In this document: in pieces, positions 2,591 through 49,883 of the stretch
Position numbering within the stretch: position 1 is the stretch's first letter
Layout of the letters: each line of letters opens with the position of its first letter
DNA from: Candidatus Saccharimonadota bacterium
GTDB taxonomy: Bacteria > Patescibacteriota > Saccharimonadia > Saccharimonadales > SZUA-47
DNA: 64,000 bases
Assembly: GCA_016700315.1 (NCBI GenBank)
Contig: CP065013.1
Location: 513,449-577,448, forward strand
Reading direction: 5' to 3'
Notes under the pieces: generated by a model
Told to the model about the DNA's origin: nothing
The model's database searches: none
What the model saw: only the letters and a program-made list of their open reading frames with translations
Position numbers and translations under genes: made by a program

Positions 2591-3572
2591 ATGCGCTACA
2601 TCGATATCTATAGAGCCTGGCAAAGCTTCGTAAAGGCTAAAAAATACAGTACTTCGATTGACGAATTTGCCTATTATGTCGAGCAGAATCTTCAGCAACT
2701 TACTCGTGACACTGAAACGAGGACTTACAAACACGGCTCGTACAAAAGAGTTGTAATAAGCGAAAAGAAACGTCGTGATTTAGCGGTGGCTTCGGTCTGT
2801 GATCGTGTTGTTCACCGCTATGTCTACGACGAGTTAGTAGGGATTTTTGATAATTCTTTTGAGCCCGATGTCTTTTCTTGCCGCGAGGGCAAAGGCTTGC
2901 ACAAGGCTCTAGTAAGAACGCAAAAATTGCTGCAAAAATACTATGAATGCTATGTTTGGAGGGCTGATATTACCAAGTTTTTTGACTACGTAGACCAAGA
3001 CAAGCTATTGAGCATTATTGTTAGAAAAATAGATCCAAACAGTGAACTATTTTGGTTGTGCGAGCAGATAATCCAAAGTTATAATTCGAAGCCATCAGCC
3101 ATCAGCCATCAGCCATCAGCCATCAGCTGGCATCCCTATTGGCAATTTGACGTCTCAAATTTTTGCCAACATCTACCTAAATGAGTTCGACCGCTATGTG
3201 CGCCACCGGCTAAAACCTTTGGCATATTTACGCTACGGCGACGATTTCATCCTAATTTGTAAAACAAGAAAACAAGCATATGAGCAGAGGCTGCGGGCAA
3301 AAGAATTTTTGCAAACAGAGCTTGGGCTGAGCCTACACCAAACTAATGATGTTGCAGTAGCTGTTAAGCAGGGCCTACATTTCTTAGGACATGTGATCAC
3401 TTCCAAATTTTTAATAGTTGATAAACAAACCAGCAAAATTGCAGTGGCCAAAGTAAGCATTAAAAATGTAGCCAGCTACCGATCATTATTGCTTCTTGAA
3501 GTACTGCATAAGGAAATTAACTGGGAATTATTACAAATTATTGACAAAATATGTAGTAATGATGTATACTAG
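2591..3572 (+). CDS. DGR-type reverse transcriptase, split into ORFs 2591-3184 and 3147-3572 by a frameshift inside a heptanucleotide repeat
   Basis: RT motifs RRDLAVASVCDRVVH and SCREGKGLHKA are present. GIPIGNLTSQIFANIYLNEFD is encoded at 3129-3191 in the downstream frame and carries the DGR-typical IGxxxSQ motif. YLRYGDDFIL supplies the YxDD box. Removing one 7-nt unit fuses both halves into one ORF of about 324 aa. Confidence 0.85.
3091..3127 (+). repeat. (GCCATCA)x5 perfect heptanucleotide tandem repeat inside the RT gene
   Basis: Read directly from the sequence. It encodes KPSAISHQPSAIS in the upstream frame, and 35 nt is not a multiple of 3. Confidence 0.95.
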
Positions 3573-3597
3573 CGTCTAATTAATAGGAGTTTATCAA

Positions 3598-4437
3598 ATG
3601 TCACAAAGTCATACAGTCCAAGGTCTCTGGATACCCGAGAAGCCAAAGCCAGTTTTTGATGTCAATAGATTTGCCAAAGGAACTATCGATGTTTCGACAG
3701 AAGTCGATAGAGGTATCGAGCTTATTCGTATGGCTGGCGGCTTTAATGGCGGCGGCGATGAGGCTAAGTTACGCAACGACTTTACGACTGACCTTGTGGC
3801 GCTCGAACAAACTGGTTTGGCTATGCGCATCGTGCCTGATGTGCCAGGAACTAATCTACCCTTTAACAGCTTAATAGCCCTAATGGATGGAGTTAGACCT
3901 GAAGGCGTAGAAGAGGCATCTATTTACGATAAATTATGGGTACCAGGTGTAGAGGCTGACAGCCTAACTCCAGAACTACTTGCTGGCCCTGCTAAAAGGG
4001 TAGCCCTAAGAGGCCTGCTACTGAGCGTAAGCTCAGGTGACTATGACCCAGTCTTGCATCACCGAGGCCTACCAGCTGATGACCACGCCAAAGAAATGTA
4101 TGATCCTAGTGCCAAGACTACTCAAACTTCAGCGTTGACTCAAGATATCTCAGCTTTTGAAGCAACCTTCCCCGAACTCGATCTTAGAGGAGCTAGTTAC
4201 CGTGATTACGCGTTTTTGGTTACTGCATTCAGACGGAACTTGCGACCAGAGCCAGGTGCATTACCGCTATCTAGAGACTATATGCGCGATCTAGGCGTGG
4301 GACGCCACAATGTGGGCGGCGGCTCGGTCGTCGCGGGCGTCGACTCGGATGGTGGTTGGGCTCGCTTCGACGGGGGCAGTGGCCACGCGAATGACCTCGC
4401 TGGCGTCGGCCTTTCGGCGGGGCGAAAAGACTCTTAG
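3598..4437 (+). CDS. DGR target (variable) protein with the VR at its extreme C-terminus
   Basis: 279 aa with an RBS-like AGGAG 8 nt upstream. The last 39 codons or so are the VR. The C-terminus GGGSVVAGVDSDGGWARFDGGSGHANDLAGVGLSAGR is Gly/Asp-rich. No signal peptide or TM helix is seen. Confidence 0.8.
   Translation: MSQSHTVQGLWIPEKPKPVFDVNRFAKGTIDVSTEVDRGIELIRMAGGFNGGGDEAKLRNDFTTDLVALEQTGLAMRIVPDVPGTNLPFNSLIALMDGVRPEGVEEASIYDKLWVPGVEADSLTPELLAGPAKRVALRGLLLSVSSGDYDPVLHHRGLPADDHAKEMYDPSAKTTQTSALTQDISAFEATFPELDLRGASYRDYAFLVTAFRRNLRPEPGALPLSRDYMRDLGVGRHNVGGGSVVAGVDSDGGWARFDGGSGHANDLAGVGLSAGRKDS
4311..4427 (+). other. DGR variable region (VR)
   Basis: Ungapped 117-nt match to 4662-4778 at a constant offset of 351. 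There are 15 differences, all at TR adenines. Confidence 0.9.
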
Positions 4438-4661
4438 ACTTTGAGCTTTAATCTTTATTTTCTTCTTTTTTTGTTGCTAAACTGAAATTAGCTTTGTATT
4501 GCCAAGATGATCGCTAGTTTGGGTATATAACTCTGAAATTACGCTGATCGGGAATCAAAGAACAAAGTGTATTTTGCCCCGCGTGCGGCTGCCTACAAAA
4601 ATGAATTAAAACACCTTATGTTCTCGAACATTAGGTTGCTCGAAGTAGGTAGCGAACAAAC

Positions 4662-4778
4662 TGTGGGCGGCGGCTCGATCGTCGCGAGCGTCAACTCGGA
4701 TGATGGTTGGGCTAACTTCGACAGGGACAATGGCAACGCGAATGACAACGCTGGCGTCGGCCTTTCGGCAAGGCAAAA
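4662..4778 (+). other. DGR template region (TR)
   Basis: Non-coding copy of the VR that carries A wherever the VR differs. Its adenines sit in AAC/AAT/GAC-type triplets. The ORF-track ORF 4567-4884 merely mirrors it. Confidence 0.9.
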
Positions 4779-4785
4779 CACTACT

Positions 4786-4820
4786 AAAACCCAGGCCCAT
4801 AAGATAGCCTGGGTTTTTTA
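4786..4820. terminator. Bidirectional stem-loop between TR and avd
   Basis: AAAACCCAGGC-N10-GCCTGGGTTTTTT. It overlaps the avd stop at 4818-4820. Confidence 0.6.
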
Positions 4821-5156
4821 CTTCTCAGATTTCAGCCAACCACCGAGCATCCGGCCTATCTCGAGTGTTTTGGCGTTTATCTGATGTAGCGTGGTTTCGT
4901 TGGCTAGCTTTTGCTCAAGCAGACTACGCAGCAAAAACTGAGCGATCTCAAGCTTGGCTGAAGCCTTAATCAGATAAACTGCCTTATGAGCCTTCGGTGC
5001 GTGTTTGGCCATGATTAGTAGCTCTAGCAGGTCCAGAAGTGAAGTTTCTGTGTGTCTGCCTATGGTTTGCTTTTTGCTAGGATCTAGCTTATCGCAAATC
5101 TTGCAGGTTGCGTTATACAGCTCTTGAACTTTAAGTATTATGCCTAGTTCAAACAT
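4818..5156 (-). CDS. avd: Avd-like four-helix-bundle protein (DGR accessory variability determinant family)
   Basis: 112 aa, predicted all-helical and basic. The C-terminal ...LEIGRMLGGWLKS resembles the four-helix-bundle / 23S rRNA intervening-sequence protein family used by DGRs. It lies adjacent to the TR. Confidence 0.7.
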   Translation of the reverse strand: MFELGIILKVQELYNATCKICDKLDPSKKQTIGRHTETSLLDLLELLIMAKHAPKAHKAVYLIKASAKLEIAQFLLRSLLEQKLANETTLHQINAKTLEIGRMLGGWLKSEK

Positions 5157-5238: not shown

Positions 5239-7515
5239 ATGGCAGCGCCCAAAAAGTCTAAGAAGATAAAAATTTCTGACGAGTCACAATCGGCTAAAGT
5301 CATAAAAGACCATGCTCTGACACCGTTACCAGTAAGCGAAGAAGATGTTTCTGGTGCACCTGAAGTCTCTATCACTGTCAGAAAAGAAGGCAAAAAGATT
5401 AGTCCTATCAAAGATGGGGTTAGTGCTGTGCCAGTCCATGAAAATGAGCCAGTCATGACCAAAAAGCCAGAGTTGAACGAGGTGAAGACAGCCCCAGAAG
5501 CACCAGATAATCAGCCCAAAGAAGAATTAACAGGCCTAAGTAATGAACAAACGATTGGAGATGATTTAGTCTCGGAGCTCGAAAGCAACGAAACCGAGTT
5601 AGACAAGGTAAATCCAGCCGAGGCCCCAGCCACAACAAAAAAGCAGAAGGATGCCAAGTTGCAAAATGAAGATCGGCAAATCCCAGAAGAAGAGATTAAC
5701 GAAACAACAACTTCTGAGGTGCCGGAAAATGGAATCGACATTTTCGGGGAGGGTTCAAAAATTGAAGACCTTGATCTAGAGGCGGCTGCAAATACTCCAG
5801 TTGGACAGCTCGATTTGGCTAGCACAATAGATCCAGAAACTGAGTTTGCTGATGCCGAAATTGACGCGGCAGTTGATGAAATTGTGGCCGAAGAGTCCGA
5901 TGCTCTTCTGGAAGCTGAAGATGCCGCACGCAATTCTTTGGCAGTCGTTGAAGCCAAGCCTGCCAAGCCGAATCGCCTAAAAGAAATATTTAGTTTACCT
6001 GCAGTCAAGTGGGGCGTGGCTTTTGGCTTGGTATTACTATTTTCAATAATTTGTTTACTGCCTGCTTCCCGTTATGCAGCCTTAAATTTGTTAGGCATAA
6101 GATCAAGTAGTACAGTCACTGTTCAGGATAGTTCGACACGCCTTCCGATTAAGAATGTCAGTGTTAGTCTACAGGGCCAGACAGCCACAACCGATCAAGA
6201 AGGTAAAGCAGTTTTTGAAAAGCTCAAACTCGGTAAAGCACCACTCGAAATCAAAAAACGCGGCTTTGGTAGCATCGCTAGAGATGTTGTTTTGGGCTGG
6301 GGCAGTAACCCAATGCCGCCAGAGGGATTAACTGCGACTGGTACGGTGTATGTTTTAAATCTCAAAGATTACCCCAGTGAAAATCCTATCACCAAGGCCG
6401 AAGCAACTAGCGGAGAATTTAGTGCGAAGACAAACGACAAGGGTGAAATAAGACTAGTCACTGAGCCTTCCGACAAGGATGCAGAGATTACAATAAAAGC
6501 CGACGGCTACCGAGAAGAAAAACTATTGTTTACGGTTACAGACAAATTGAGCCGTGATGTGTTTATGGTGCCATCACGACCGCTGATCTATGTTAGTAAA
6601 CGTACGGGTAGCTATAATCTTTACCAGATAGATGCCGACGGCAAAAATGAAAAATTATTACTTGAGTCAACCGGCAAAGAGCGAGAAGACTATAGCATAC
6701 TTGCTCATCAGACCGACAATGTCACCGCGGTAGTCAGTACAAGAGAGGGTCACCGCAACAACGATGGATTTTTACTCAATGGACTGTTTATCGTAGATAG
6801 TAGCGCTCAGAACAATCGAATTAGCGAATCTGAACGTATTCAACTGATAGACTGGATTGGAGATAATTTGATTTATGCGGAAGTCAAAGAAGGAGGTAGT
6901 GCCGCCCTTCCTAACCGCAGCAAGCTAAAAAGCTATAACTACAAGACTTACGAAAACAAAGAACTTGCCAGCGCTAATTATTTTAATGAAATCTCAATAT
7001 TTAATGGGTCTGTTTTGTATGCGCCCTCAGCCTACGCAGTAAATATAGATAGTGTCAAATTTAGTAAAATAAAACCTGACGGTAAAGATCAGCAAACTGT
7101 TTTAGACAAGGAAGTCTGGAGTATTGTACGCACAGGCTACGACAGTGTAGCCTTCAACTCACAGAACACTTGGTATGAGCTAAAAAATACTGGGAGTGCA
7201 GTGAAACTAAGCGGAGCGCCAGCAAACCTCCGGAGCATGGACTATCATGATGGCCCAAACAATGTATCGCTTAGAACAGAGACGAGGGATGGAAAAGGAG
7301 TGCTACTGCTTAGAGATGCTCAGGGTTCAGAGAAGGTTATAGCTACAGTTGCTGGATTACGTCAGCCTACTCGGTGGCTAAGTGATTCGACTATAACTTA
7401 TCGAGTTGTTACGGCCAACGAGTCTGCTGAGTACGTCCTAAGTTTGCTCGGCGGCGAAGCCAGAAAAGTTACGGATGTCACAAACACTGGTGGGGCCGAG
7501 AGCTACCAAAACTAG
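5239..7515 (+). CDS. Large membrane-anchored protein with an acidic disordered N-terminus, one TM helix and a beta-rich outer part with TolB/PD40-like repeats
   Basis: 758 aa. The TM helix is WGVAFGLVLLFSIICLLPA. Segments such as YVSKRTGSYNLYQIDADGKNEKLL resemble PD40 repeats. The functional call is weak. Confidence 0.55.
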   Translation: MAAPKKSKKIKISDESQSAKVIKDHALTPLPVSEEDVSGAPEVSITVRKEGKKISPIKDGVSAVPVHENEPVMTKKPELNEVKTAPEAPDNQPKEELTGLSNEQTIGDDLVSELESNETELDKVNPAEAPATTKKQKDAKLQNEDRQIPEEEINETTTSEVPENGIDIFGEGSKIEDLDLEAAANTPVGQLDLASTIDPETEFADAEIDAAVDEIVAEESDALLEAEDAARNSLAVVEAKPAKPNRLKEIFSLPAVKWGVAFGLVLLFSIICLLPASRYAALNLLGIRSSSTVTVQDSSTRLPIKNVSVSLQGQTATTDQEGKAVFEKLKLGKAPLEIKKRGFGSIARDVVLGWGSNPMPPEGLTATGTVYVLNLKDYPSENPITKAEATSGEFSAKTNDKGEIRLVTEPSDKDAEITIKADGYREEKLLFTVTDKLSRDVFMVPSRPLIYVSKRTGSYNLYQIDADGKNEKLLLESTGKEREDYSILAHQTDNVTAVVSTREGHRNNDGFLLNGLFIVDSSAQNNRISESERIQLIDWIGDNLIYAEVKEGGSAALPNRSKLKSYNYKTYENKELASANYFNEISIFNGSVLYAPSAYAVNIDSVKFSKIKPDGKDQQTVLDKEVWSIVRTGYDSVAFNSQNTWYELKNTGSAVKLSGAPANLRSMDYHDGPNNVSLRTETRDGKGVLLLRDAQGSEKVIATVAGLRQPTRWLSDSTITYRVVTANESAEYVLSLLGGEARKVTDVTNTGGAESYQN

Positions 7516-8092: not shown

Positions 8093-8743
8093 ATGAAAAA
8101 AGTATCGTACAAAGTATCTTTGCTTGCTCTGCTGGCGTCTTTGGTCATACCGTCGACAGTAATGGCAATGTCAGGATCTGATAAAGTAGCGACTATCGCC
8201 GAGAATCGTCAACGAACTGGCACGACTCTCGAAGATCGCCTAAAAGCAGATAAAGCAAAACTAAAAGTCCAACTTAGTGAAGCCGACAAAGCCAAGATAA
8301 AGAATAAATGCAAGGCTGCTCAGAATTTAGTCAAAGCTCAAGCTACAAAAGCGGCTAATTTTGAAGCAAGTCGTAAAAAAGTTTACGATGGAGTACTTGA
8401 CCGATTAGAGAAGTTAGCCGTTAAGTTAGAGGCTGCAGGCAACAGTGACCAGGCAGCAAAAGTTAGAGCAGAAAAGATTGCCCTGTCAGCTAAAGCTGAT
8501 GCTGTTTATGCTGCACTTCAGGACTACAAGCAGGTTCTAGATGACCTTGTAGGCAACGACTGTACCACTGATCCAACTGCATTTAAAGCAGCACTCGAAG
8601 CTTCTCGTGCAGCTCGTGACGCTGTAAAATCTAAGACCAAAGACTTCCGTGACTACTATACTCAAACTACCGTCAAAATACTTGCTGAAGTCAAAAAAGC
8701 ACTGGGTGCTAGCACAGAAACTAAAACAGAAGGAGCAAACTAA
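8093..8743 (+). CDS. Secreted coiled-coil protein
   Basis: The ATG at 8093 is preferred over 8048 because AAGGA lies upstream and it gives the signal peptide MKKVSYKVSLLALLASLVIPSTVMA. The rest is Lys/Ala-rich and helical. Confidence 0.7.
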   Translation: MKKVSYKVSLLALLASLVIPSTVMAMSGSDKVATIAENRQRTGTTLEDRLKADKAKLKVQLSEADKAKIKNKCKAAQNLVKAQATKAANFEASRKKVYDGVLDRLEKLAVKLEAAGNSDQAAKVRAEKIALSAKADAVYAALQDYKQVLDDLVGNDCTTDPTAFKAALEASRAARDAVKSKTKDFRDYYTQTTVKILAEVKKALGASTETKTEGAN

Positions 8744-11867: not shown

Positions 11868-12292
<425 letters not shown>

Positions 12293-14863: not shown

Positions 14864-14869
14864 CAAAAT

Positions 14870-15003
14870 GGTAGTTGGTAGTTGGTAGTTGGCGTAAGTC
14901 TAAACTCGTCCCTAGCTCTTAGCTCCTAGTCCATAGACCCTAGTCCCTAGCTTTTGGCTCAGTACTCACTGAACATGACTCATGTGTCTTGGCTTTCGTT
15001 TCT
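14870..15003. repeat. Heptamer-chain intergenic element (H1)
   Basis: (GGTAGTT)x3 is followed by CCCTAGC TCTTAGC TCCTAGT CCATAGA CCCTAGT CCCTAGC TTTTGGC TCAGTAC TCACTGA ACATGAC TCATGTG TCTTGGC, all in a single 7-nt register. Confidence 0.8.
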
Positions 15004-16241: not shown

Positions 16242-16841
16242 CTACAGTGATCGGCGAATCTTGCTTCGGTACCACCAGAGAATAATTCCATTGATGAATA
16301 AGGACATGAGCGCTATGCAAAGTGCCAGTAAGCTCCAGCCGGCCACATCTGGTGACCAACGAGGACTTACAAAATCAAACTTATAGAGTCCGTCTGGTAT
16401 ATCTTTGAGAATAACGCCGTGGCTCGAGACATACTCTGTTATACATGGTATCCTGGGGCCACCGAAAAAAGCTCCGGGAAAACGACGCTCACATTCAGCT
16501 TGGGCGTCGCTATAAATTGTTGCACTACTAGCTTGTAGTTTAGCCTGCTCCGCTGCTACCAAACGATCATAGGTACCTTTCAGCTGGATCGGCGGATAAA
16601 CCCCTGTAGGACTGCCGATTGTGGTATTCATATGAGCATAAATAAATTCGCGTAGTCTTGTAAGTGCGGTTTCGACATCTCCGCCAGATTGATCAATCGC
16701 TATCAGTTCATCATAACGCTTCTTAGCCTCCTTGCTATTATTTACCAGAGAACTGATCGTCAACAGTCCGAATAAGGTTGCAAGCAGGCCGCTAACAGCG
16801 AAGGCAATAACTCTCTTCTGTACAATGTCGCGTTTAGCCAT
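16242..16841 (-). CDS. Hypothetical membrane protein with N- and C-terminal TM helices
   Basis: 199 aa. No family recognised. Confidence 0.55.
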   Translation of the reverse strand: MAKRDIVQKRVIAFAVSGLLATLFGLLTISSLVNNSKEAKKRYDELIAIDQSGGDVETALTRLREFIYAHMNTTIGSPTGVYPPIQLKGTYDRLVAAEQAKLQASSATIYSDAQAECERRFPGAFFGGPRIPCITEYVSSHGVILKDIPDGLYKFDFVSPRWSPDVAGWSLLALCIALMSLFINGIILWWYRSKIRRSL

Positions 16842-16895
16842 AAGCTATATTGTACAGAAAAAAAGCCGCTAACCGCTAGAGTTTGTGTAGGTGAG

Positions 16896-17168
16896 AGTCA
16901 ATAGTTAATAGTTTATGGTTTATAGATAAATACTGATGAGTCTTTGCTGTGTACCTCGCACTCCGTACCGCGTACTGTTCAAATAGAGCCAAGAGTCAAG
17001 AGTCATGAGCCAAGAACTAGGGACTAGGGACCAGCAAGTATTACCCCGTACCTCCTACGGACCAGGGTCTAGGATCTAGGGTCTAATTCATACTTGATAC
17101 TATCTTCGTTTATAATTTAGAGCTTAGGGTTTAGAGTTTTCCCCTCGTTCCTCGTTCCTCCAACCTCG
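16896..17168 (+). repeat. Heptamer-chain intergenic element (H2), left arm of an inverted pair
   Basis: About 39 consecutive 7-nt units in one register, for example AGCCAAG AGTCAAG AGTCATG AGCCAAG AACTAGG GACTAGG GACCAGC. Positions 16903-17151 are the reverse complement of 21704-21966. Confidence 0.85.
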
Positions 17169-17187
17169 GCGTGTTAGAATAAAAGTT

Positions 17188-17940
17188 ATGAACATAATCG
17201 AGGTAAAAAATCTTACAAAAGTTTACAGTGGCAAAAAAGCCGTAGACGGCATAAGTTTTAGCGTTAAAAAAGGCGAAGTTTTTGGCATTTTAGGTCCTAA
17301 TGGGGCCGGCAAGACTACAACTCTGGAAATGCTTGAAGCTCTACGAGAAATCGATGGCGGCGAGGCCTTCATCGACGGCATAAACGTTGCGGAAAAACCT
17401 TACGAAATTCGCCGGATTATCGGTGTACAGCCACAAAGTCCGAGCTTCCAAGACAAAACTAAGCTCACAGAACTGCTAGAAATGTTTTCGGCTGCTTACG
17501 GCGAAAAGGTAAACACCAAGAAATTTCTAGATAGCGTTCAGTTGCTGGATAAAAAAGATTCATTCATAGAGAATCTCAGTGGCGGCCAAAAACAACGTTT
17601 CTCAATTGCGGCAGCTCTGGTTCATCGCCCTAAAGTCTTCTTCCTTGATGAGCCAACCACAGGCCTTGATCCTCAGGCGCGGCGCAATCTGTGGGACCTG
17701 ATCCGCGACATCCAAAAGCGCGGCACTACGGTTATACTTACGACGCACTACATGGACGAAGCCGAACTACTTTGCGACCGTATTGCAATCATGGACAACG
17801 GCCGCATTATCAAGCTCGATACACCTAAGAATCTTATCAAACAATTGCTTGGCAAGGGGTTCAAGAAAGAGCAGCACGTAGAACAAGCAAACTTAGAAGA
17901 TGTTTTTATCGATTTAACCGGTAAGGAGCTACGAGTATGA
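17188..17940 (+). CDS. ABC transporter ATP-binding protein (ABC-2 exporter type)
   Basis: Walker A GPNGAGKTT, signature LSGGQKQR, Walker B VFFLDEPTTGLD. Confidence 0.9.
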   Translation: MNIIEVKNLTKVYSGKKAVDGISFSVKKGEVFGILGPNGAGKTTTLEMLEALREIDGGEAFIDGINVAEKPYEIRRIIGVQPQSPSFQDKTKLTELLEMFSAAYGEKVNTKKFLDSVQLLDKKDSFIENLSGGQKQRFSIAAALVHRPKVFFLDEPTTGLDPQARRNLWDLIRDIQKRGTTVILTTHYMDEAELLCDRIAIMDNGRIIKLDTPKNLIKQLLGKGFKKEQHVEQANLEDVFIDLTGKELRV

Positions 17941-19052
17941 GTGTCAAGCGTAAACTATACACCGTCTATGCTTTTACTAAAATCAATACTAAACGGTTTT
18001 TTCGCGATCGATTAGCCATCTTCTTTACGGTCATTTTTCCTCTCATCTTTCTGTTTATATTCGGTGGACTTTTTGGCAAAGACACAAGTGTAAGTTTCAA
18101 CATCGCGTTACTCAATAACTCTGGCAGCCAATTTTCTAAGGATTTTGACAAAAACATCCGCGAAGCAAAAGTTTTCAAGGTAAGTGACAAGGCAAATAAT
18201 CTTGATGAGGCCAAGGAAAGAATGAAGCGGGGCGAGCTTGATGGCATAATTATTCTCCCTGAGTCTTTTGGTCAAATCACTGCCGGGCAGACCACACCAA
18301 GCGGTCAAGCAGAAGTACTGTACGCCCAAAACAACGACCAGGCTGGAACGGCTCTGACCTCTGTACTGCAGAGCGTCATGAAGGACATCAACAAGGGCTT
18401 TGGGACGGTCAGTGAGCCGTTCACTGTAAAGGCCGAGGCTAGTAACGACAAGGGACTGTCTAGGCTGGACTATACTTTTGCTGGTCTGCTAGGCTTTTCT
18501 ATCCTAGGAGTTGGTATATTTGGACCTATGAATGTCTTTCCAGAGCTAAAAAAACAAGGAATCTTGCGCCGACTGCATACTACAACATTGCGAGTGTGGC
18601 AGTATTTCTTATCAACCGCAGCATCACAAGTGGCGGTAGGGATACTCTCTTTTGCCATTCAGTTCGCCGTTGCCATTGTGCTGTTTGATCTAAAAGTAGT
18701 TGGAAATTATCTCGAGTTGATCGTTTTCTTGATGCTTAGTACTGTCATGATGCTTGGTATCGGTTTGGCACTTGGTGGCTGGGCTAAGAATGAGCGACAG
18801 GTAGCTCCGCTCGGAAATCTTATCACTTTTCCGATGATTTTTCTTTCAGGCGCCTTCTTTCCAAGATTCATCATGCCAGAGTGGCTACAAAAAGTTAGCG
18901 ATTATATCCCTCTAACTCCGATTATCGACGGAGTTAGACTTATCGCAACAGAAGGTAAGCACCTGACCGAAATTGGATCGCAGGTCGGGCTAGTAGCGGC
19001 CTGGTTAGTGGTAGTCTATCTCATTGCCTTCCGCGTCTTCCGCTGGGAGTAG
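17937..19052 (+). CDS. ABC-2 family transporter permease
   Basis: 4-nt overlap with the ATPase gene. An N-terminal TM helix, a large loop, then five TM helices. Confidence 0.8.
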   Translation: MSVKRKLYTVYAFTKINTKRFFRDRLAIFFTVIFPLIFLFIFGGLFGKDTSVSFNIALLNNSGSQFSKDFDKNIREAKVFKVSDKANNLDEAKERMKRGELDGIIILPESFGQITAGQTTPSGQAEVLYAQNNDQAGTALTSVLQSVMKDINKGFGTVSEPFTVKAEASNDKGLSRLDYTFAGLLGFSILGVGIFGPMNVFPELKKQGILRRLHTTTLRVWQYFLSTAASQVAVGILSFAIQFAVAIVLFDLKVVGNYLELIVFLMLSTVMMLGIGLALGGWAKNERQVAPLGNLITFPMIFLSGAFFPRFIMPEWLQKVSDYIPLTPIIDGVRLIATEGKHLTEIGSQVGLVAAWLVVVYLIAFRVFRWE

Positions 19053-19097
19053 CAGGACTACCTTGCAAACAGAGCTTAAGCGTGATATAGTATATTT

Positions 19098-19394
19098 ATG
19101 CCTAAAGTTAATCCCAATCAACCAAGACTTTTTGCAGATGATGATATGGGCAAATTGTTAACTACTGCCGTTCGTGCAGGCGAACTAATAGTGGAAGCTA
19201 CTATGGATGCAAGTATACCCGGCGCAACCATGCCGACTGATTTAAGACGAAAAATTGATACTAGTCTAGGAATTAGCCCAGACCTACCTGAAGAAGATAA
19301 GCAAAAAGCTCGAGAAGCGGCTAGGTTAGCAAGTGCTAGTAGAACTAGGTTGAGGGAAGAAGCGGCTGCTCGGCACCAGCCTAACAGGTATTAA
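19098..19394 (+). CDS. Hypothetical protein
   Basis: 98 aa, charged. No family recognised. Confidence 0.45.
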   Translation: MPKVNPNQPRLFADDDMGKLLTTAVRAGELIVEATMDASIPGATMPTDLRRKIDTSLGISPDLPEEDKQKAREAARLASASRTRLREEAAARHQPNRY

Positions 19395-19416
19395 TTTATT
19401 CTTAGGCTAACATAAG

Positions 19417-20745
19417 ATGGCAAAAACTCGACCAAACCCAATGCAAGATCCTCTCTTCCCAACAGCTGGTGGAGAGTTTTTTCTCCCTCAAGCAGAGGCT
19501 AGCAATGAAGTTCAACCGTTAGTAAGGAACTTGCAGCTAGTTAACGTTTTAGACTATTTTACAGAGATAGCTAGACTAGAAACGTTTATAAAGTATGGAA
19601 GTACCAAAGACGGTAAAAAAACTCTAGCAAAGCAGTACGGCGGACAAGCTGGGGCTGAGGATGTGTTGCTTAGGTCGCAGTTACGACGCGTAGAACTAGA
19701 CAAAGCAGCAAAACTTGAATACATGCGCGCCGAGGGGTTGTTTGTAGAGTTAGATGCTGGCAAGATAACCCAAAGGGATGCGTGGGAGAAGGCAAGGTCT
19801 GGCTACAGGTCTTTTGCTGAGGAATATGGCTTCACACACCAAAATTCACAGCGTGCAAAAATACGAGAGGAATTGCTAGCTTCTGTCAGACAAAGACAGG
19901 ACTTGGTTACATCAGTACGTAAAAAGTCGGATCTATCTAAAGACGATAATGATAAGCCCAAGCCTATTGATGATCAACTCGACACATGGACTAAGCTACA
20001 AGTAATAAAAAATGATCCTCGGGCCGGTTTTATACCCGCTACAAATCACGAAAAAACAATTGTTCTGGCTTGGTTGGATTACCTGGACAACCCCGTATAT
20101 CCATTTGGTATCAGAAACCAAACCATAGAAATCTATCTTTCCCAGATAGCAAAACATGGCGCTCAAGGCAGAGACTTTGGGGTTCAGGCAGCCGTCAGTC
20201 GTGCATACGAGTTGCAGGACATTCTAACGGATGCTGAGATCTCACTACAACTCTTAAAAGCCTTCCAGTTAGAAGTCGCAGATACGCCTAACCCAGACGT
20301 TTACCTTGAGCAAGAATTTGGCGAGAGCCATCCAGCTTACGCAGTATTGATACGATTTAGAGATCTAAGAGAGCTTGCCCTCACCGGTACAGTAGAAGGT
20401 TTGCGAGGTTCAGCTCTTCGTAGCACACGAAATGAAGAAGCTGTCCCTGATGAGCTAATAGGTCAAAAAAATAAAGTCATTGAAGGCCCCTATACATCAT
20501 TGAAGCTCACCAAGGCTATCGCAAGACGAATTAAGACACAGCCCAAAAAACTGAAAGTTGGTGATGTGCGTAATGACTTTGAAGAAGCGATTGCTGATCA
20601 GGAAATGCGTCGTGATTTTGCCAGAGCCCGCCTAGAAGATATGGCTACAGGAGCTGATGAAAAAGACGAATTGTTGCTAGCCTCTTCAACTGTTGCTCGC
20701 TCCATTCTAGGCTTAAGCAATGAGCTAGATTTGGTAACTGTGTAA
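19417..20745 (+). CDS. Hypothetical protein (442 aa)
   Basis: Long clean ORF with no recognisable motifs. Its stop overlaps the dus start. Confidence 0.6.
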   Translation: MAKTRPNPMQDPLFPTAGGEFFLPQAEASNEVQPLVRNLQLVNVLDYFTEIARLETFIKYGSTKDGKKTLAKQYGGQAGAEDVLLRSQLRRVELDKAAKLEYMRAEGLFVELDAGKITQRDAWEKARSGYRSFAEEYGFTHQNSQRAKIREELLASVRQRQDLVTSVRKKSDLSKDDNDKPKPIDDQLDTWTKLQVIKNDPRAGFIPATNHEKTIVLAWLDYLDNPVYPFGIRNQTIEIYLSQIAKHGAQGRDFGVQAAVSRAYELQDILTDAEISLQLLKAFQLEVADTPNPDVYLEQEFGESHPAYAVLIRFRDLRELALTGTVEGLRGSALRSTRNEEAVPDELIGQKNKVIEGPYTSLKLTKAIARRIKTQPKKLKVGDVRNDFEEAIADQEMRRDFARARLEDMATGADEKDELLLASSTVARSILGLSNELDLVTV

Positions 20746-21731
20746 TGCAGAAATTACTTAAGCCCTTTTTTGTCCTAGCGCCGATGGACGATGTTACGGA
20801 CTGCGTTTTTCGGCAAATCGTGGCTGATTGTGCTAGCCCTGACCTTTTTATGACGGAGTTTATCAACTGCGAGAGTTTGCAAAGTGCTGGCCGTAAAGCC
20901 ACCTATACTCGCACGCTTTATAACGACAAATCAAACCAGGTAATAGCTCAGATATGGGGCAAAATGCCAGAGCATTTTGAGAAATCTGCTCACGAGCTTA
21001 TGCAAATGGGCTTTCACGGTATAGACATAAACTTTGGCTGCCCAGAGAAAACCGTCGTCAAGAACGATTGCTGTAGCGCTATGATCCGTCCTGAAGGCCG
21101 AGAAGCGGCCCTAGAGCTGATTAGGGCTGCCAGGCGGGGAATTGGCTGTGACGGGTTTTTGAGTGTCAAAACAAGGCTCGGATTTAACGAGATAGACTAT
21201 TCTTGGCACGAGCTTCTACTCAAAGAGGGCTTGCAGATGCTAACTGTCCACGTGAGGACACGCAAAGAAATGAGCAATGTGCCGGCCAACTATGAGGCAA
21301 TTAGGCCAATCGTTAAGCTGCGTGATAAGTTAGCACCTAGCACCAAGATTGTCCTAAATGGTGATATCGAAAACCGCTGTCATGGCGAGGAGCTGGCTGC
21401 AAAATACGGTGTTGATGGCCTGATGATTGGGCGTGGAATCTTCCACGATCCGTTTGCTTTTGCTGGCAACAGTCAGTGGAATGCGATGGACGCAGACCAA
21501 AAGATCGGGCTTTTTGTAAAACACCTCCAGCTTTTTAAGGCCACTTGGCCGAATGGTGAACGTAGCTATCAAACCATGAAAAAGTTTGCCAAAATTTATA
21601 TCAACGGCTTCGACGGCGCCAAAGCTATTCGTGAACAAATCATGCAAACTAACAGCGTCGACGAAGCTCTAGAGCTGATAGCTAGTCCGACAAAGGCGGA
21701 CTTGGAACGAGGGGAAAACTCTAAACCCTAA
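20745..21731 (+). CDS. dus: tRNA-dihydrouridine synthase
   Basis: LAPMDDVTD...DINFGCP...VHVRTR is typical of the Dus FMN TIM barrel. The last 9 codons or so lie inside repeat H3. Confidence 0.85.
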   Translation: MQKLLKPFFVLAPMDDVTDCVFRQIVADCASPDLFMTEFINCESLQSAGRKATYTRTLYNDKSNQVIAQIWGKMPEHFEKSAHELMQMGFHGIDINFGCPEKTVVKNDCCSAMIRPEGREAALELIRAARRGIGCDGFLSVKTRLGFNEIDYSWHELLLKEGLQMLTVHVRTRKEMSNVPANYEAIRPIVKLRDKLAPSTKIVLNGDIENRCHGEELAAKYGVDGLMIGRGIFHDPFAFAGNSQWNAMDADQKIGLFVKHLQLFKATWPNGERSYQTMKKFAKIYINGFDGAKAIREQIMQTNSVDEALELIASPTKADLERGENSKP

Positions 21732-22006
21732 GCTCTAAATTATAAACAAAGATAGTATCAAGTATGAATTAGACCCTAGACCCTAGACCCTAGACCCTGG
21801 TCCGTAGGAGGTACGGGGTAATACTTGCTGGTCCCTAGTCCCTAGTCCCTAGTTCTTGGCTCATGACTCTTGACTCTTGGCTCTATTTGAACAGTACGCA
21901 GTACGGAGTACGAGGTACGCAGCAAAGAGTCATCAGTATTTATCTATAAACCATAAACTATTAACTCAACCCTGGTCCCTAATCCCTAAACACTCTAACC
22001 TCTAAC
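21704..22006 (-). repeat. Heptamer-chain intergenic element (H3), right arm of the inverted pair plus an extra module
   Basis: Contains (TAGACCC)x4, (TCCCTAG)x3 and GTACGCA GTACGGA GTACGAG GTACGCA. It differs from H2 by SNPs and by two exact 7-nt indels. Confidence 0.85.
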
Positions 22007-22339
22007 CTAGTTTCTTGAGCCCCAGCTCGACATCATGTCTAAGATGTCACAGAGGCCTTGACCCTTATGTGTCAGAGAGTAGCGATATCGCGGAGGGTGC
22101 TTACAATAAAGTGTTTTCTCAACGATCTTTTCTCTTTGAAGTTTGTCTAAGCGGGCACTTAGCGTGCGTGGGCTTATTCCGACTAAGCTAGACTCCAACT
22201 TGCTAAAGGGCAAGCCTTGTTCGGAAATTTGAGCAAGTATTAGAGCTGTCCATTTGTCACCCAAAATCTGAAGAGTGGCATCAATAGAGTTCAGTTTGTT
22301 TTTGGGCTTAGCTTTGGTTAGTCGGGTAATAATTGCCAT
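22007..22339 (-). CDS. HxlR-family winged-helix transcriptional regulator
   Basis: LQILGDKWTALIL...GISPRTLSARLDKLQREKIVEK...YSLTHKG. Confidence 0.8.
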   Translation of the reverse strand: MAIITRLTKAKPKNKLNSIDATLQILGDKWTALILAQISEQGLPFSKLESSLVGISPRTLSARLDKLQREKIVEKTLYCKHPPRYRYSLTHKGQGLCDILDMMSSWGSRN

Positions 22340-23254: not shown

Positions 23255-23490
23255 ATGCGTAGGGCGGCTGGGGTTGAGTTAATAGTTTATGGTTTATAGA
23301 AAACTGCTGAATACCGTTTACTGAAGACTGTTTACTGTGTATCGAATGAAACTAATACGTACCGTGTACTGTGCTAGGTTAGAGGTTAGAGTGATTAGGA
23401 AGGCTACGGACCAGGGACTAGGGTCTAGGGACTATTTTATAATTTAGAGCTTAGGATTTAGAGTTTTCCCCTCACGTTCACTGTTATAAT
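23255..23490 (+). repeat. Heptamer-chain intergenic element (H4)
   Basis: GTTAATA GTTTATG GTTTATA ... AGGTTAG AGGTTAG ... CTAGGGT CTAGGGA ... GAGCTTA GGATTTA GAGTTTT CCCCTC. It shares its end modules with H2 and H3. Confidence 0.8.
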
Positions 23491-23516: not shown

Positions 23517-24044
23517 ATGAATCTAGATTTTTTGAATCGAGCCACAGAAACAGCTAGAGCAATTGCCAAAGTTGCAGGCCCTGGGATAGAAGGTCAAGTT
23601 AGTTTTACAGAATACGAGGAAAAAGGCTGGAAGTACGTAGTAGTAGCCGCAGATGTTAGTGGTGATCCTGAGGTTTTGAAGCAAGGTAAGCACGCTATGC
23701 ATATTCACGAAAAAGGTGATTGCGAATGTGAAGGATTTAAGTGCGCCGGCGGGCATTTTGATCCAGGGGTATCGGGCAATTCTGACCCCGATGCCAACCA
23801 CGGCTATCACGCTGGCGATCTGCCAAATCTCGAAGTCGACACATCTGGGCACGGCACAATGAGGACGATTACAACTCGTGTTACTTTAAGCGACGGCCCT
23901 GTCTCCATATTATCGGCTGAATCAGCACCAGAAGGCACGTCCGTCATGATACATGCAAATGAGGACCCTTATACACCTGGAGAGTCTGGTTCTGGCCACA
24001 GTGGCGGCCCTCGTCTAGCTTGCGGCAAAATAGAACGTCAATAA
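23517..24044 (+). CDS. sodC: Cu/Zn superoxide dismutase
   Basis: MHIHEKGDC, GGHFDP, HAGDLPNL, HANEDPY and GGPRLACG. No obvious signal peptide. Confidence 0.85.
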   Translation: MNLDFLNRATETARAIAKVAGPGIEGQVSFTEYEEKGWKYVVVAADVSGDPEVLKQGKHAMHIHEKGDCECEGFKCAGGHFDPGVSGNSDPDANHGYHAGDLPNLEVDTSGHGTMRTITTRVTLSDGPVSILSAESAPEGTSVMIHANEDPYTPGESGSGHSGGPRLACGKIERQ

Positions 24045-25696: not shown

Positions 25697-25738
25697 AAGA
25701 AAAAAGCCCCAGATAAACTGGGACTCTTTTCTTGGTAG
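25697..25738 (-). repeat. 42-bp perfect copy of the sequence immediately 3' of tRNA-fMet (CCA tail plus terminator)
   Basis: Identical to 26581-26622. Confidence 0.85.
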
Positions 25739-26580: not shown

Positions 26581-26583
26581 AAG

Positions 26584-26610
26584 AAAAAAGCCCCAGATAA
26601 ACTGGGACTC
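26584..26610 (-). terminator. Terminator after tRNA-fMet
   Basis: The minus strand reads GAGTCCCAG-TTTAT-CTGGGGC followed by TTTTTT. Confidence 0.55.
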
Positions 26611-26616
26611 TTTTCT

Positions 26617-26691
26617 TGGTAGCGGGGGCAGGACTTGAACCTGCGACCTCATGGTTATGAGCCATGCGAGCTGCCACTGCTCCACCCCGCG
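26617..26691 (-). tRNA. tRNA-Met (CAT), initiator-like
   Basis: CGCGGGGTGGAGCAGTGGCAGCTCGCATGGCTCATAACCATGAGGTCGCAGGTTCAAGTCCTGCCCCCGCTACCA. It closely resembles E. coli tRNA-fMet and has an unpaired C1 x T72 position. Confidence 0.9.
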
Positions 26692-36853: not shown

Positions 36854-38650
36854 ATGAACCAATCACACATTCGTAACTTTTGTATTATCGCGCATATTGA
36901 TCATGGCAAGTCGACTTTGGCTGATCGACTACTAGAGTTGACTGGAACAGTTCAGAAGCGAGATATGAAGGCGCAGTTGCTCGACAAAATGGATCTAGAA
37001 CGTGAGAAGGGTATCACTATTAAGCTTGCTCCTGTGCGTATGGATTATGAACTTGACGGAGCAAAAAAGTATCAGCTGAATCTTATCGATACCCCAGGTC
37101 ATGTAGATTTTAGCTACGAAGTAAGCCGTAGTCTGCAGGCTTGTGAGGGCGCGATTTTGGTTGTGGATGCCGCGCAGGGTATACAAGCACAGACGCTCGC
37201 TAATGTTTATTTAGCTATTGAGGCAGATCTCAAAATCATTCCCGTGCTTAACAAAATCGATCTGCCGGCCGCCGATGTTGAAAGAGTTAGCACGGAGGTG
37301 GTAAGTCTACTTGGCTGCTCCAAGGAAGAGATTATTCTTATTAGCGCTAAAACTGGGCTGGGCGTCGAGGAAGTACTTCGCGCTGTCGTTGAGCGGATTC
37401 CAGCTCCATCAGACGATGGTGATCCAGAAACAAAGGCTCTTATTTTTGACAGCTACTACGATGATTATCGCGGAGTTGTACTTTATGTTCGAGTGGTCGA
37501 CGGTGCAATTGGCAAGAGTTCTGAAGTTCATATGATCGGTAGCAGTGCCGATGGTGTGGCCTTAGAAGTTGGGCACTTGAGCCCAGAAATGAAGCCAGAC
37601 CAGCAGCTAGCTAAAGGCGAGATTGGCTACATTGTGACTAACCTGCGTTCAACTCGTGAGGCTAAGGTTGGCGATACGGTAACACTTGTCAAGGCGCCTG
37701 CCTCGTCCCCATTGCCGGGCTACAAAGAAGTGACGCCGTTTGTTTACGCTGGGTTTTTCCCAGAGAGCAACGAAGATTACCAGAACCTAAAAGATGCCAT
37801 CGAGAAGTTGTCTCTCAGTGATTCGGCACTACAATACAGTCTTGAAAATTCGCCTGTGCTCGGTTTTGGAGTAAGAATCGGCTTTTTGGGACTGCTGCAT
37901 ATGGACATTGTGCGGGAGCGTTTGGCCCGCGAATATGACCTAAGCTTGGTTGTCACAAACCCCTCAACAGATTATTACGTAGGTATGAAAAACGGCGATC
38001 GGCTACATATAAAGTCGGCTAGTGAGCTGCCGGATCAAACCATGTTCGACTCGATCGAAGAGCCTTGGATAAAGGGCGAAGTTGTTTGCCCTAAAGAGTT
38101 CGTCGGATCTGTTATTCAGCTCATATCTTCTAAGCGGGGGGTTCAAAAAAATCTGTCCTATGTTGACGCCCAATTGGCGCTAATAAGTTTTGATGCGCCA
38201 CTCGCTAACCTGCTGACCGACTTCTATGATCAACTCAAAAGCATAACTAGCGGCTACGGCTCGTTTAACTACGAACTCAGCGGTTACCGCGCCGAAGATT
38301 TAGTAAAGGTAGACTTCTATGTTGCTGGGGATAGAGTAGATGCTCTCAGTGTCATGACGCACCGCTCGGAATCTCAAGCACTGGGGCGTGACACTGTTAA
38401 AAAGCTGAAAGAGATTATCCCTCGTCAGAACTTCCAGATTGCACTCCAAGCCGGTATCGGCGGTAAGTTTATCGCACGTGAAGACATCTCAGGCTACCGC
38501 AAAGATGTAACGGCCAAACTCTACGGTGGCGATGCTAGCCGCCGCAAAAAACTACTCGAAAAGCAAAAGAAGGGCAAAGAACGCATGAAGCGCTTCGGTA
38601 AAGTCGATATCCCTAGCGAGGCTTTCACAGTCTTACTAAAGCGCGATTAA
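36854..38650 (+). CDS. lepA: Elongation factor 4
   Basis: IRNFCIIAHIDHGKSTLADRLL, DTPGHVDF, NKIDL, and the LepA C-terminal domain. Confidence 0.95.
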   Translation: MNQSHIRNFCIIAHIDHGKSTLADRLLELTGTVQKRDMKAQLLDKMDLEREKGITIKLAPVRMDYELDGAKKYQLNLIDTPGHVDFSYEVSRSLQACEGAILVVDAAQGIQAQTLANVYLAIEADLKIIPVLNKIDLPAADVERVSTEVVSLLGCSKEEIILISAKTGLGVEEVLRAVVERIPAPSDDGDPETKALIFDSYYDDYRGVVLYVRVVDGAIGKSSEVHMIGSSADGVALEVGHLSPEMKPDQQLAKGEIGYIVTNLRSTREAKVGDTVTLVKAPASSPLPGYKEVTPFVYAGFFPESNEDYQNLKDAIEKLSLSDSALQYSLENSPVLGFGVRIGFLGLLHMDIVRERLAREYDLSLVVTNPSTDYYVGMKNGDRLHIKSASELPDQTMFDSIEEPWIKGEVVCPKEFVGSVIQLISSKRGVQKNLSYVDAQLALISFDAPLANLLTDFYDQLKSITSGYGSFNYELSGYRAEDLVKVDFYVAGDRVDALSVMTHRSESQALGRDTVKKLKEIIPRQNFQIALQAGIGGKFIAREDISGYRKDVTAKLYGGDASRRKKLLEKQKKGKERMKRFGKVDIPSEAFTVLLKRD

Positions 38651-38764
38651 TAGCTATGCTCTTCATGCGTTCTTTTGATTGCCGGGGTCCCCAAAAAACA
38701 TGTTTTTTGGGGTGTGGCCGCATGAAGCGCTTCGGTAAAGTCGATATCCCTAGCGAGGCTTTCA
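38582..38764 (+). repeat. 46-bp perfect direct repeat of the lepA 3' end flanking a 91-bp insert with a 24-nt palindrome
   Basis: 38582-38627 equals 38719-38764. The palindrome CCCCAAAAAACATGTTTTTTGGGG is at 38689-38712. Confidence 0.85.
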
Positions 38765-42104: not shown

Positions 42105-42320
42105 ATGGATAAGTACCCAATTTCACCAGAAGAAAGAAAAAAGATTGAGGCCGCCGATGAAGCTTCTAGAGCTGAGGCTGCGCAAATCCTAGGTCCTCAG
42201 GTTGCCGAACAGTTTTTCGCTTACACCGATGCTAAAAGACAAGAACTAAAACCATCCAGCATCACTCGTGAAGAGGCCTACATGTACAGGCAAAATACCG
42301 GTAGCGAAGAAGGCTTTTAA
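42105..42320 (+). CDS. Hypothetical protein (71 aa)
   Basis: ORF only. Its stop codon lies within the putative target-site duplication of the transposon. Confidence 0.4.
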   Translation: MDKYPISPEERKKIEAADEASRAEAAQILGPQVAEQFFAYTDAKRQELKPSSITREEAYMYRQNTGSEEGF

Positions 42321-42324
42321 AAAA

Positions 42325-43363
42325 CCAGCTTCACATAACTCCTAATCTGTAGTCTCATCCAATTAGCAGAGGTTGCGTCAGCAGCCTCTGTTGTGGTTTT
42401 GTGTAGTGTATTGAGGGTTTCTTTGGTTGTAGCTGGTAGCATATTAATCCGCTGAGTAGGTTGACTACGAAGTTGTTAGGGCTTCGGTGTCTAGTGTGTT
42501 CGATCTGTTGGGTATTTTTGAGCTGATCGTTGATGGTCTCGATGATGGATCGCTTTCTCAGCATCAGTTTATCCCAGAGGCTCATCAGATGATTCTTCAT
42601 GTTGCGTCTAATGCCTGTGATGAGATGAACACCCTTTTGGAGTGGTGAAAGAAATAGCTCGTGTCCAATGTAACCTTTGTCAGCATAGAGTTTGCCCGTT
42701 AGCTTTTCTGTCAGTTTGAGCATCAGTGCTTGATTGTTGTCTGGGGCGTGACCTGGTGAGAGCAGGAATGAGATGATCTCACCTCGTTCATTGAAGGTCA
42801 GATGCAGTTTCAAACCAAAGAACCAGCCCATGGAGCTCTTGCCTCTGGTTGCAATGCCTTTGAAGACTCGATGCTTCCAGATCCGCTTGTTGTTACAAAC
42901 ATCCAGTGTCGTACTGTCCACGAAGTTGACGAGTGTGGCTGGTGCGAGAAGACTGATCATGAGAGCAAGGAGTGGCAACATACTCTCACGCATCAGTCTG
43001 AGGAATCGTGTATAGCTAACCCTGTTTGGGAAGGCATCAACCAGATGCATGCAGATATGTTCAAGGTAGTATTTCTTGAACTGACGATAGCCGCTGGCAT
43101 GAAACCAGATACAGATAGTCAGTCATTACTTCAGAGAGTGTCATGGCACCCTGTTTGTTACGAACCCGTTCTCCAGATTCAATCTGTTTTGATCTCCACT
43201 CAGGCTCAAATTTCTTGCAGAACTCGTCAACGATGTAGAATAGTGTTACTAGCTCCATATACGTGTCTCCTTTTTGTTTTATGTTTTGTTACAGAAACAG
43301 AATAACAGGGCTGACGCCCTGTTATCTACAAAACAAAATGGGGACTCTTATGTGAAGCTGGGG
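42325..43363 (-). mobile_element. IS982-family insertion sequence, copy A
   Basis: About 1.04 kb with terminal inverted repeats (CC)CCAGCTTCACATAA. It is identical over the aligned parts to copy B at 45383-47535. Confidence 0.85.
42355..43258 (-). pseudogene. IS982-family DDE transposase, frameshifted (65-aa plus 231-aa ORFs)
   Basis: FHASGYRQFKKYY can be read only after a frame change. A TGAC TGAC tandem duplication at about 43118-43125 accounts for this. DDE-region motifs are ...DSTTLDVC...ADKGYIG... Confidence 0.8.
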
Positions 43364-43530
43364 TTACCTACTATGCTGGAAAGATCGAGCGTGGCCTATC
43401 AACGCTTGAGCCAAAGCCACTTAATAGCACCTTTAATGAGTCCGCCAATATGAGTGATGCTGACTTACGAAAATTATCGACGTTAGCAATTAAGCTGCCA
43501 GGACTTGACCGAAATCTTACCAAAATCAAA

Positions 43531-44151: not shown

Positions 44152-44251
44152 CTCAGCAGCCCACACCTTTCTTAAAGTTTGAAATCGTTTGCCCCCAGTA
44201 TAATCCTACAGCTTAATGTTTGTATATAGGACTAGGTTTCATTACTTAGTT

Positions 44252-44500
44252 CTAAAGACATTTATACATATCAGGCGCAAAAGACCTGAAAATGACGATT
44301 ATAAGTGCTAAAACTAAAATCATTCTTACATTTTTTTGATGTAAGGATTTTTTCATTTCAGGATTTGAAATTGATTTATTAGCTTTAGTCTCTTTAGCAA
44401 TTATTATTATAGCTACAAATATTAAAAGTAGTGTGATCACATCTTTAAAGTCGAGTACTCTAGAACAACTGTACATTGTCATTTTTGCGATAATATCCAT
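44252..44500 (-). CDS. Small hypothetical membrane protein
   Basis: 82 aa with two hydrophobic helices, in a very AT-rich segment. Confidence 0.35.
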   Translation of the reverse strand: MDIIAKMTMYSCSRVLDFKDVITLLLIFVAIIIIAKETKANKSISNPEMKKSLHQKNVRMILVLALIIVIFRSFAPDMYKCL

Positions 44501-44634
44501 TACTAATTTATCCTTTACTTTATTTAGTAATACTTAAACTGGCTAAGTATATAATTAGTATAATAGTTAATATTACAAGTATTTTTTTAATCATTATAGT
44601 ATTAACATTAACACAATTCGTGTATTATTAGCTA

Positions 44635-49702: not shown

Positions 49703-49883
<181 letters not shown>

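Follow-up and report, generated by a model that had tools for sequence, protein, structure and literature searches.

A local family of heptanucleotide mosaics, with inverted copies flanking an inversion, in a Saccharibacteria genome

Between a 199-aa gene (16242-16841, − strand) and a divergent ABC ATPase gene (17188-17940, + strand), the 64,000-nt stretch of Candidatus Saccharimonadota DNA analysed here (the window) carries an intergenic element, at 16896-17168, that reads as a succession of 7-nt units, raising the question of what this element is, how it arose and whether it serves the cell. Parsed from 16896, its 273 nt give 39 heptamers, and we found that the identity of bases 7 nt apart is 0.579, compared to 0.253 ± 0.027 in 2000 dinucleotide-preserving shuffles (z = 12, shuffle maximum 0.36). 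The lag-7 autocorrelation that the first-pass annotation of this DNA had proposed to measure against shuffled sequence is thus significant; lags 14 (z = 8) and 21 (z = 5) also stand out and the remaining lags are at background. Tandem Repeats Finder (TRF) called six period-7 arrays within 16896-17168, and when periods of 4 to 12 were compared over the whole 64-kb window, with at least four copies at 85% identity or more counted as an array, only period 7 yielded any (seven arrays, 258 nt). On the strength of the lag z-scores, the TRF arrays and the period scan, the 7-nt periodicity is therefore genuine and specific to 7, and the element shares with heptanucleotide simple sequence repeats (SSRs) the head-to-tail 7-nt units in excess of chance.

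A stronger claim had been made for the same positions, namely that they are built entirely of heptamers in one unbroken register. All 28 heptamers listed in its support are present in that register, but continuity does not survive closer parsing: nine junctions are at chance, related blocks lie out of phase and about 20 nt are non-repetitive. Specifically, 9 of the 38 neighbouring heptamer pairs match at no more than two of seven bases, which is the chance level, so that phase is not assessable at these nine junctions, and the neighbour statistics are alike in all seven registers. Excess identity at multiples of 7 is confined to lags 7-34; between lags 35 and 139 it has vanished (0.26-0.27 at multiples of 7 versus 0.20-0.27 elsewhere). 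Blocks that resemble each other over longer distances do not keep step either: the best lag between the xCTAGGG blocks at 17016 (ACTAGGG) and 17061 (ACCAGGG/TCTAGGG) is 45 (3 modulo 7), that between the GTACCNC blocks is 90 (6 modulo 7), that between blocks 1 and 8 is 211 (1 modulo 7) and that between blocks 6 and 8 is 55 (6 modulo 7). Rather than a single array that drifted in place, 16896-17168 comprises some nine short heptamer arrays strung one after another, each with 2-5 units, together with a non-repetitive stretch of about 20 nt.

The element had been taken on its own, but it is in fact one of four copies in the window (Table 1). Using blastn and an nhmmer profile made from nine copies, we found four sites in the 64-kb window, all at 14.9-23.5 kb and thus within about 9 kb, in the alternating orientation −, +, −, +. 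No match to the profile was found in other DNA of the same species (L109-L118) or in related genomes, so that the profile scan suggested in the first-pass annotation returned four local sites and none in the relatives scanned. The DNA sampled for copies amounts to about 110 kb of a genome of about 1 Mb, and the local confinement of the family is therefore provisional. A match at 49558-49588 was set aside as chance similarity; it is coding and lies near the 3' end of ORF 47724-49664, in our reading dnaK-like from its place after grpE. A composite of about 250-290 nt has thus been copied into four neighbouring intergenic regions, and the element does not stand alone but belongs to a local family of repeats in which inverted copies border an inversion.

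Table 1. Coordinates of the element copies and associated features in the window.
Feature	Position	Strand	Description
Copy a	14896-14986	−	Partial inverted copy of middle blocks; downstream of MFS gene
Copy b	16896-17168	+	Reported element; core common to other copies 16903-17151
Copy c	21704-21966	−	Inverted; 97.5% identical to copy b
Copy d	23277-23473	+	Direct; conserved ends, diverged middle
Segment between copies b and c	17152-21703		4.6 kb; ABC ATPase, ABC-2 permease, two variable ORFs, Dus
Sigma-70-like match TTCATA-18-TATAAT	17087-17116	+	10/12 consensus match; inside copy b, facing ABC gene
Extended −10-like motif TGTTAGAAT	17172-17180	+	7 nt 5' of ABC ATG, beyond shared core
Diversity-generating retroelement (DGR)	2591-5156		Heptamer tract 3090-3124

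Copy b consists of four AGTTAAT-type units, a TACNNNG-type block, four AGCCAAG/AGTCAAG units, two ACTAGGG units, an ACCNCNT block, three AGGGTCT units, the non-repeat stretch ATTCATACTTGATACTATCT, four TTTAGAG/CTTAGGG units and three CCTCGTT units. Copy c, located between the 3' ends of the Dus (20745-21731, +) and HxlR (22007-22339, −) genes, carries one ACTAGGG and one AGGGTCT unit more than copy b. Copy a is preceded by (TGGTAGT)3 at 14869-14892 and is longer in assemblies L001, L097, L101 and L102. A Cu/Zn superoxide dismutase gene (23517-24044, +) lies downstream of copy d, whose right-hand 38 nt are 97% identical to those of copy b. The right-hand 38-44 nt are far better conserved than the middle and are the best-kept part in copies b, c and d. 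The copies exchange modules among themselves: the middle of site d in assembly L003 resembles that of copy b, and CTAGGTTAGAGGTTAGAGTG, a mark of module shuffling, lies outside copy c yet in the middle of copy d. Copies b and d share one orientation and both lie 35-45 nt 5' of a start codon, a placement suggestive of a role at promoters.

Comparison of independent assemblies revealed that the alleles of the element differ by indels of 7, 7, 7, 14, 21 and 35 nt, such that six out of six indels in the size range of 2-100 nt have lengths divisible by 7. Also seen were a 118-nt deletion and, in a T run among other places, a few changes of 1 nt. Across strains the ACTAGGG block ranges from 2 to 5 units and the AGGGTCT block from 2 to 4. 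Haplotype H3 is identical in four assemblies, which argues that the indels are not assembly noise. Blocks thus expand and contract between strains by entire 7-nt units, a length polymorphism that is also a hallmark of heptanucleotide SSRs. The suggestion that the element is the product of repeated 7-nt duplication followed by mutation is supported by these indels and by an (AGCCATC)n tract elsewhere in the window that varies between 4 and 5 units (see below). Between strains the flanking genes are 98-100% identical and one non-repeat intergenic region is 100% identical, compared to 95-97% for the element (a figure that leaves the indels out), and the element is therefore the fastest-evolving DNA of its neighbourhood. 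The polymorphic AGCCATC tract and a small AACTATC array upstream of ruvB, just outside the window, point to heptamer slippage at other sites of this genome as well.

The variable tract lies within the DGR, where (AGCCATC)5 cuts the reverse transcriptase gene into two ORFs (2591-3184 and 3147-3572) that both match RVT_1. In assembly L109 the tract has four AGCCATC units and the gene is intact, encoding 324 aa; L111 also has four, its contig ending within the tract, and the 5-unit frameshift allele recurs in four further assemblies. On the basis of these alleles, (AGCCATC)4/5 appears to be a switch through which heptamer slippage turns the retroelement on and off. The variable-repeat/template-repeat pair of the DGR is located at 4306-4427 and 4657-4778, the latter copy carrying A at 16 of the 17 mismatches, an adenine-specific signature; the variable copy is located at the 3' end of a 279-aa ORF (3598-4437), and a bAvd gene follows at 4818-5156 (− strand).

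The flanking ABC ATPase is 78% identical to Candidatus Saccharibacteria proteins in a species-representative genome collection, and the window genome also has type IV pilus genes, a ComEC gene and the DGR, features consistent with Saccharibacteria. In syntenic sister species (ABC protein 88% and 84% identical) the gene order is kept, and neither the element nor heptamer arrays are present; in the closer one (88%) Dus and HxlR abut. The element is likewise missing from the more distant relatives examined and is therefore recent and species-specific. An exact 20-mer of the conserved right module had no match in 185,579 species genomes and six in JGI metagenome contigs, one of which is the same locus. 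Of the other five, three fall in degenerate TTTAGGG-type arrays, eukaryotic telomere-like in appearance, and two in short TTTAGRR arrays 5' of genes, on one Bacteroidetes-like contig and one resembling the candidate phyla radiation (CPR); we treated these non-locus matches as convergent motif classes rather than as homologues. The long degenerate TTTAGGG arrays of metagenome contigs L087, L091 and L092 (plant/algal telomere type) match the 20-mer by chance, which places the TTTAGRR block in a class of heptamer motifs that is very common. Three matches of a left-module 18-mer in viral contigs were dismissed as chance matches within unrelated sequence, and blastn searches of phage and plasmid collections with the element gave no match.

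Comparison of the joints at the element in nine assemblies revealed that the 4.6-kb segment between copies b and c is inverted in three. The 199-aa gene is joined via the element to the ABC gene in six assemblies (the window and five others) and to the 3' end of Dus in three (L002/L098, L004 and L097); in L002 HxlR is moreover joined via the element to the ABC gene, both junctions being spanned. Assemblies L005 and L006 consist of the 4.6-kb segment alone with the element at each end. The element is also where most assemblies are interrupted, the contigs being <5 kb in 63 of the 67 index blocks. In L002, markers specific to copy b (A17074 and C17107) reach to within 44 nt of the Dus flank. The shared stretch of 44 nt is shorter than common assembler k-mers, and a chimeric path would thus require k-mers absent from the reads, which makes misassembly of L002 an unlikely explanation. 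The L002 crossover is located in these last 44 nt, that is, in the conserved right-hand module, whereas the other two crossovers are narrowed down to no better than about 110-150 nt. The ABC-transporter-to-Dus segment has thus been flipped by recombination between the inverted copies b and c, and both orientations circulate, in a ratio of six to three among the assemblies, as is typical of invertible switches in natural populations. Each of the body haplotypes H1, H2 and H3 is found in both orientations, and the element-mediated inversion looks recurrent. Between the ABC-2 permease and Dus genes lie two ORFs (19098-20745), of 98 and 442 aa here and without Pfam match, that are swapped for unrelated pairs in other strains (107 and 313 aa, or 91 and 246 aa) and represent a strain-variable cassette in the invertible segment.

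Several other features of the window were recorded alongside. Two homopolymer-rich stretches with long T, G and C runs, at 11890-12290 and 49700-49890, look like sequencing or assembly artefacts; the former replaces a 180-aa AAA/KTI12-like gene found at the equivalent place in L001 (4457-4999). At 42315-47543, a DDE (IS5-like) transposase element is present twice in inverted orientation; the two copies, with 856-nt arms that are 100% complementary, flank about 2 kb including a pilin-like gene (N_methyl), and a Mutator-family (IS256-like) transposase gene (46299-47336) splits one of them, an arrangement like that of a composite transposon or an invertible segment. Perfect direct repeats of 46 nt occur at 38582-38627 and 38719-38764, and others of 42 nt, containing the hairpin-like AAAAAGCCCCAGATAAACTGGGAC, at 25697-25738 and 26581-26622, the second copy of which ends 2 nt into a tRNA gene (26620-26691).

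Taken together, we think it probable that the element is a lineage-specific, hypervariable heptanucleotide mosaic, non-coding and locally duplicated, that acts mainly as a substrate for recombination. Replication slippage, biased towards 7-nt units in this lineage, would give rise to its blocks; local duplication would have multiplied the composite of about 270 nt, whose copies would be homogenised and shuffled by recombination, and the segment would invert by general homologous recombination between copies b and c. The element would have no dedicated product, and any effects would be positional, given its place just 5' of the ABC and superoxide dismutase genes: gain or loss of units could move upstream DNA relative to the promoter-like sites, and in this way the element may affect promoters. 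What speaks against such a mosaic is that the four copies sit in one 9-kb stretch in strict alternation, which is unlike the spreading of simple junk; the strong conservation of the right-hand end, into which the L002 crossover falls, and the spacing of copies b and d from start codons likewise count against it. An unlikely, though not far-fetched, alternative is that the element is a contingency regulator of the phase or rheostat type, whose heptamer number would tune transcription of the ABC and superoxide dismutase genes or toggle a G-quadruplex once four GGG tracts are attained. The placement of copies b and d directly 5' of genes in the same orientation would suit this idea, as would the extended −10-like motif just downstream (with TGTTATAAT as its counterpart at copy d), the putative role of TGTTAGAAT as a −10 element being read from its letters and position. 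The TTCATA-18-TATAAT match follows right after the AGGGTCT block, which like the ACTAGGG block varies in unit number between strains, and the slippage that appears to switch the reverse transcriptase gene takes place in this same genome. Copy c has GGGTCTA x4, the only G3N4 x4 motif in the family, and the pattern of four G3 tracts with loops of 1-7 nt is seen in copy c and in the five-ACTAGGG alleles and not in copy b; G-rich heptamers elsewhere form G-quadruplexes and prefer four units (PMC4692102). However, the variable blocks are located 5' of the promoter-like −35 and neither separate promoter elements nor belong to an established 5' UTR, gene 3' ends are what copies a and c face (the TTCATA-18-TATAAT match recurs in copy c, at 21768-21739 on the − strand, where it faces the 3' end of Dus), and the region has no excess of promoter-like matches over shuffled sequence (14 versus 14.4).

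The inversion itself could be programmed, with the right-hand module TTTATAATTTAGAGCTTAGGGTTTAGAGTTTTCCCCTCGTTCC as the site of a site-specific invertase; in one orientation the ABC operon would diverge from the 199-aa gene, and in the other it would follow the HxlR regulator and read in the same direction. This we consider improbable. The presence of three body haplotypes in both orientations implies recurrent exchange at the right end, the L002 crossover fell in the last 44 nt despite longer identical stretches elsewhere in the repeat, and the superior conservation of the right module in copies b, c and d and the breakage of most assemblies at the element point the same way. The well-kept right end and the crossover within it hint at a preferred recombination site. 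Yet no recombinase of the serine or tyrosine invertase type is encoded by the scanned ORFs near the locus, the transposases in the window being those of IS elements at 42-47 kb only, the right module has no dyad symmetry, a single crossover out of three is tightly placed, the two orientations are known from separate assemblies rather than from one sample, and one old inversion followed by recombination between strains would give an equal pattern. Several intergenic copies of 200-290 nt in both orientations, missing from sister species, might also bring to mind a MITE-like, small non-autonomous mobile element that inserts into intergenic DNA, but this is very unlikely. MITEs are marked by target-site duplications and by terminal inverted repeats, yet 16842-17187 contains no inverted repeat as long as 9 nt, and hence neither terminal inverted repeats nor hairpins, and the aligned copy borders show no target-site duplication. 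The copies are, in addition, restricted to one 9-kb neighbourhood and have ragged edges, with modules that are inside some copies and outside others, and viral, phage and plasmid collections yield chance matches at most. Its position 5' of genes is compatible with a structured non-coding RNA or riboswitch-like leader, a reading to which we attach hardly any weight, since RNA folding of either strand is no better than that of shuffles (z = +0.47 and +1.06), Rfam 15 (gathering threshold and E ≤ 1) gave no match in the element, only tRNAs, and strain indels of 7-35 nt and the 118-nt deletion are tolerated; a terminator scan also found none within the element. Finally, the heptamer period and intergenic location are shared with the STRR repeats of cyanobacteria, whose canonical units are CCCCAGT, TTGGTCA and CAACAGT and which are dispersed genome-wide in heterocystous species. 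In the window these three units occur as 4-7 singletons each per strand and never in tandem, so that the likeness to STRR drawn in the first-pass annotation is useful as an analogy and fails as an identification. A true STRR, or DNA of cyanobacterial origin, is exceedingly improbable also because the neighbouring genes, like the genomes that match best, are those of Saccharibacteria, no exact match to the right-module 20-mer occurs in the species genomes and the family is found only at 14.9-23.5 kb in the sampled DNA.

For now, fast-evolving repeat DNA is the most fitting description of the element. A more speculative thought, to which we give little credence, is that in an epibiont with a tiny genome and few classical regulators slippage and the mosaic could jointly make up a contingency system, in which the conserved right-hand module would be a preferred recombination site and repeatedly flip the ABC cassette, the number of G-rich units would tune the neighbouring promoters and slippage would toggle the DGR by way of its reverse transcriptase gene. 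If heptamer slippage is a general source of reversible variation in reduced genomes, it bears on the adaptation of epibionts, and the locus offers a natural experiment in this respect, combining strain alleles that differ in whole heptamers, an element-mediated inversion polymorphism and a tract that breaks or restores a reverse transcriptase gene.

How does this family compare with known heptamer systems? According to two papers, heptanucleotides are the most abundant longer simple-repeat class in most prokaryotic genomes, possibly because the polymerase grips a stretch of DNA 7 nt long (PMC4679880, PMC4692102). The view that such repeats are not expected in this kind of genome was therefore overstated, heptanucleotides being common in prokaryotes (PMC4679880, PMC4692102). 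We found no account of heptamer arrays in Saccharibacteria in the literature. With the prokaryotic heptanucleotide SSRs, surveyed in 2007 and summarised in PMC4679880 and PMC4692102, the element shares the period of 7, the intergenic bias, unit numbers that differ among close relatives and an origin ascribed to slippage of the polymerase with a preference for 7-nt units; it differs from plain SSRs in that about nine blocks are concatenated over about 270 nt and in that the composite exists in four copies and acts as an inverted repeat. STRR, three heptanucleotides of Calothrix PCC 7601 (cited in PMC4692102), likewise consist of tandem heptamers in non-coding DNA, but with other motifs, in another phylum and genome-wide, whereas the present family is local in the sampled DNA.

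Mixed heptamer arrays have been described in cyanobacteria, Beggiatoaceae, Bacteroidetes and Xanthomonas (PMC4679880, PMC4692102), and those of Microcystis, Gramella and Aequorivita are intergenic and missing in close relatives (PMC4679880). The TAACTGA-associated arrays of Beggiatoaceae, Microcystis and Bacteroidetes (PMC4679880) resemble the element in having several heptamers side by side, with shorter, repeat-free spacers in relatives, but the element has no TAACTGA tandem (in the window TAACTGA occurs not at all on the + strand and as three singletons on the − strand), and its arrays are not concentrated right before start codons. We also observed drifting-heptamer intergenic chains, including TTTAGGG/TAAAGGG-type units, in loci of Chitinophagaceae, Ignavibacteria, Agriterribacter and Niabella that bear homologues of the ABC ATPase (L017:2980-3089, 7203-7325 and 8542-8711; L022:5821-5955; L034:5309-5410; L043:8570-8642); the ABC ATPase is about 60% identical between Saccharibacteria and Chitinophagales. 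The G-rich heptamers GGGNATC of Xanthomonas and GGGGAYT of Nostoc form G-quadruplexes, with a preference for four units (Rehm et al., PMC4692102). ACTAGGG and AGGGTCT are likewise G3N4 heptamers, present in 2-5 units with four in copy c and five in some alleles, but their loop sequences differ, four G-tracts are attained in some alleles only and the G-rich blocks are a minority of the element.

Heptamer number 5' of a gene varies by slippage here as it does upstream of hmw1A and hmw2A of Haemophilus influenzae, where 7-bp repeats tune expression (PMC8262952, PMC12721329). The hmw repeats form a single long tract between promoter and start codon with a measured effect on expression, whereas the element consists of several short tracts 5' of putative promoter elements. 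Like invertible DNA switches, the 4.6-kb segment is bounded by inverted copies and occurs in both orientations in natural populations; unlike them, it is bounded by an imperfect heptamer mosaic of about 250 nt rather than by short defined sites, and whole operons are turned instead of a promoter. Heptamer mosaics are thus well documented in cyanobacteria, Xanthomonas, Beggiatoaceae and Bacteroidetes, and the present case extends their range to Saccharibacteria of the CPR: the element is a commonplace type of bacterial repeat found in an additional host phylum, and what sets it apart is the four-copy composite and the inversion, which looks recurrent.
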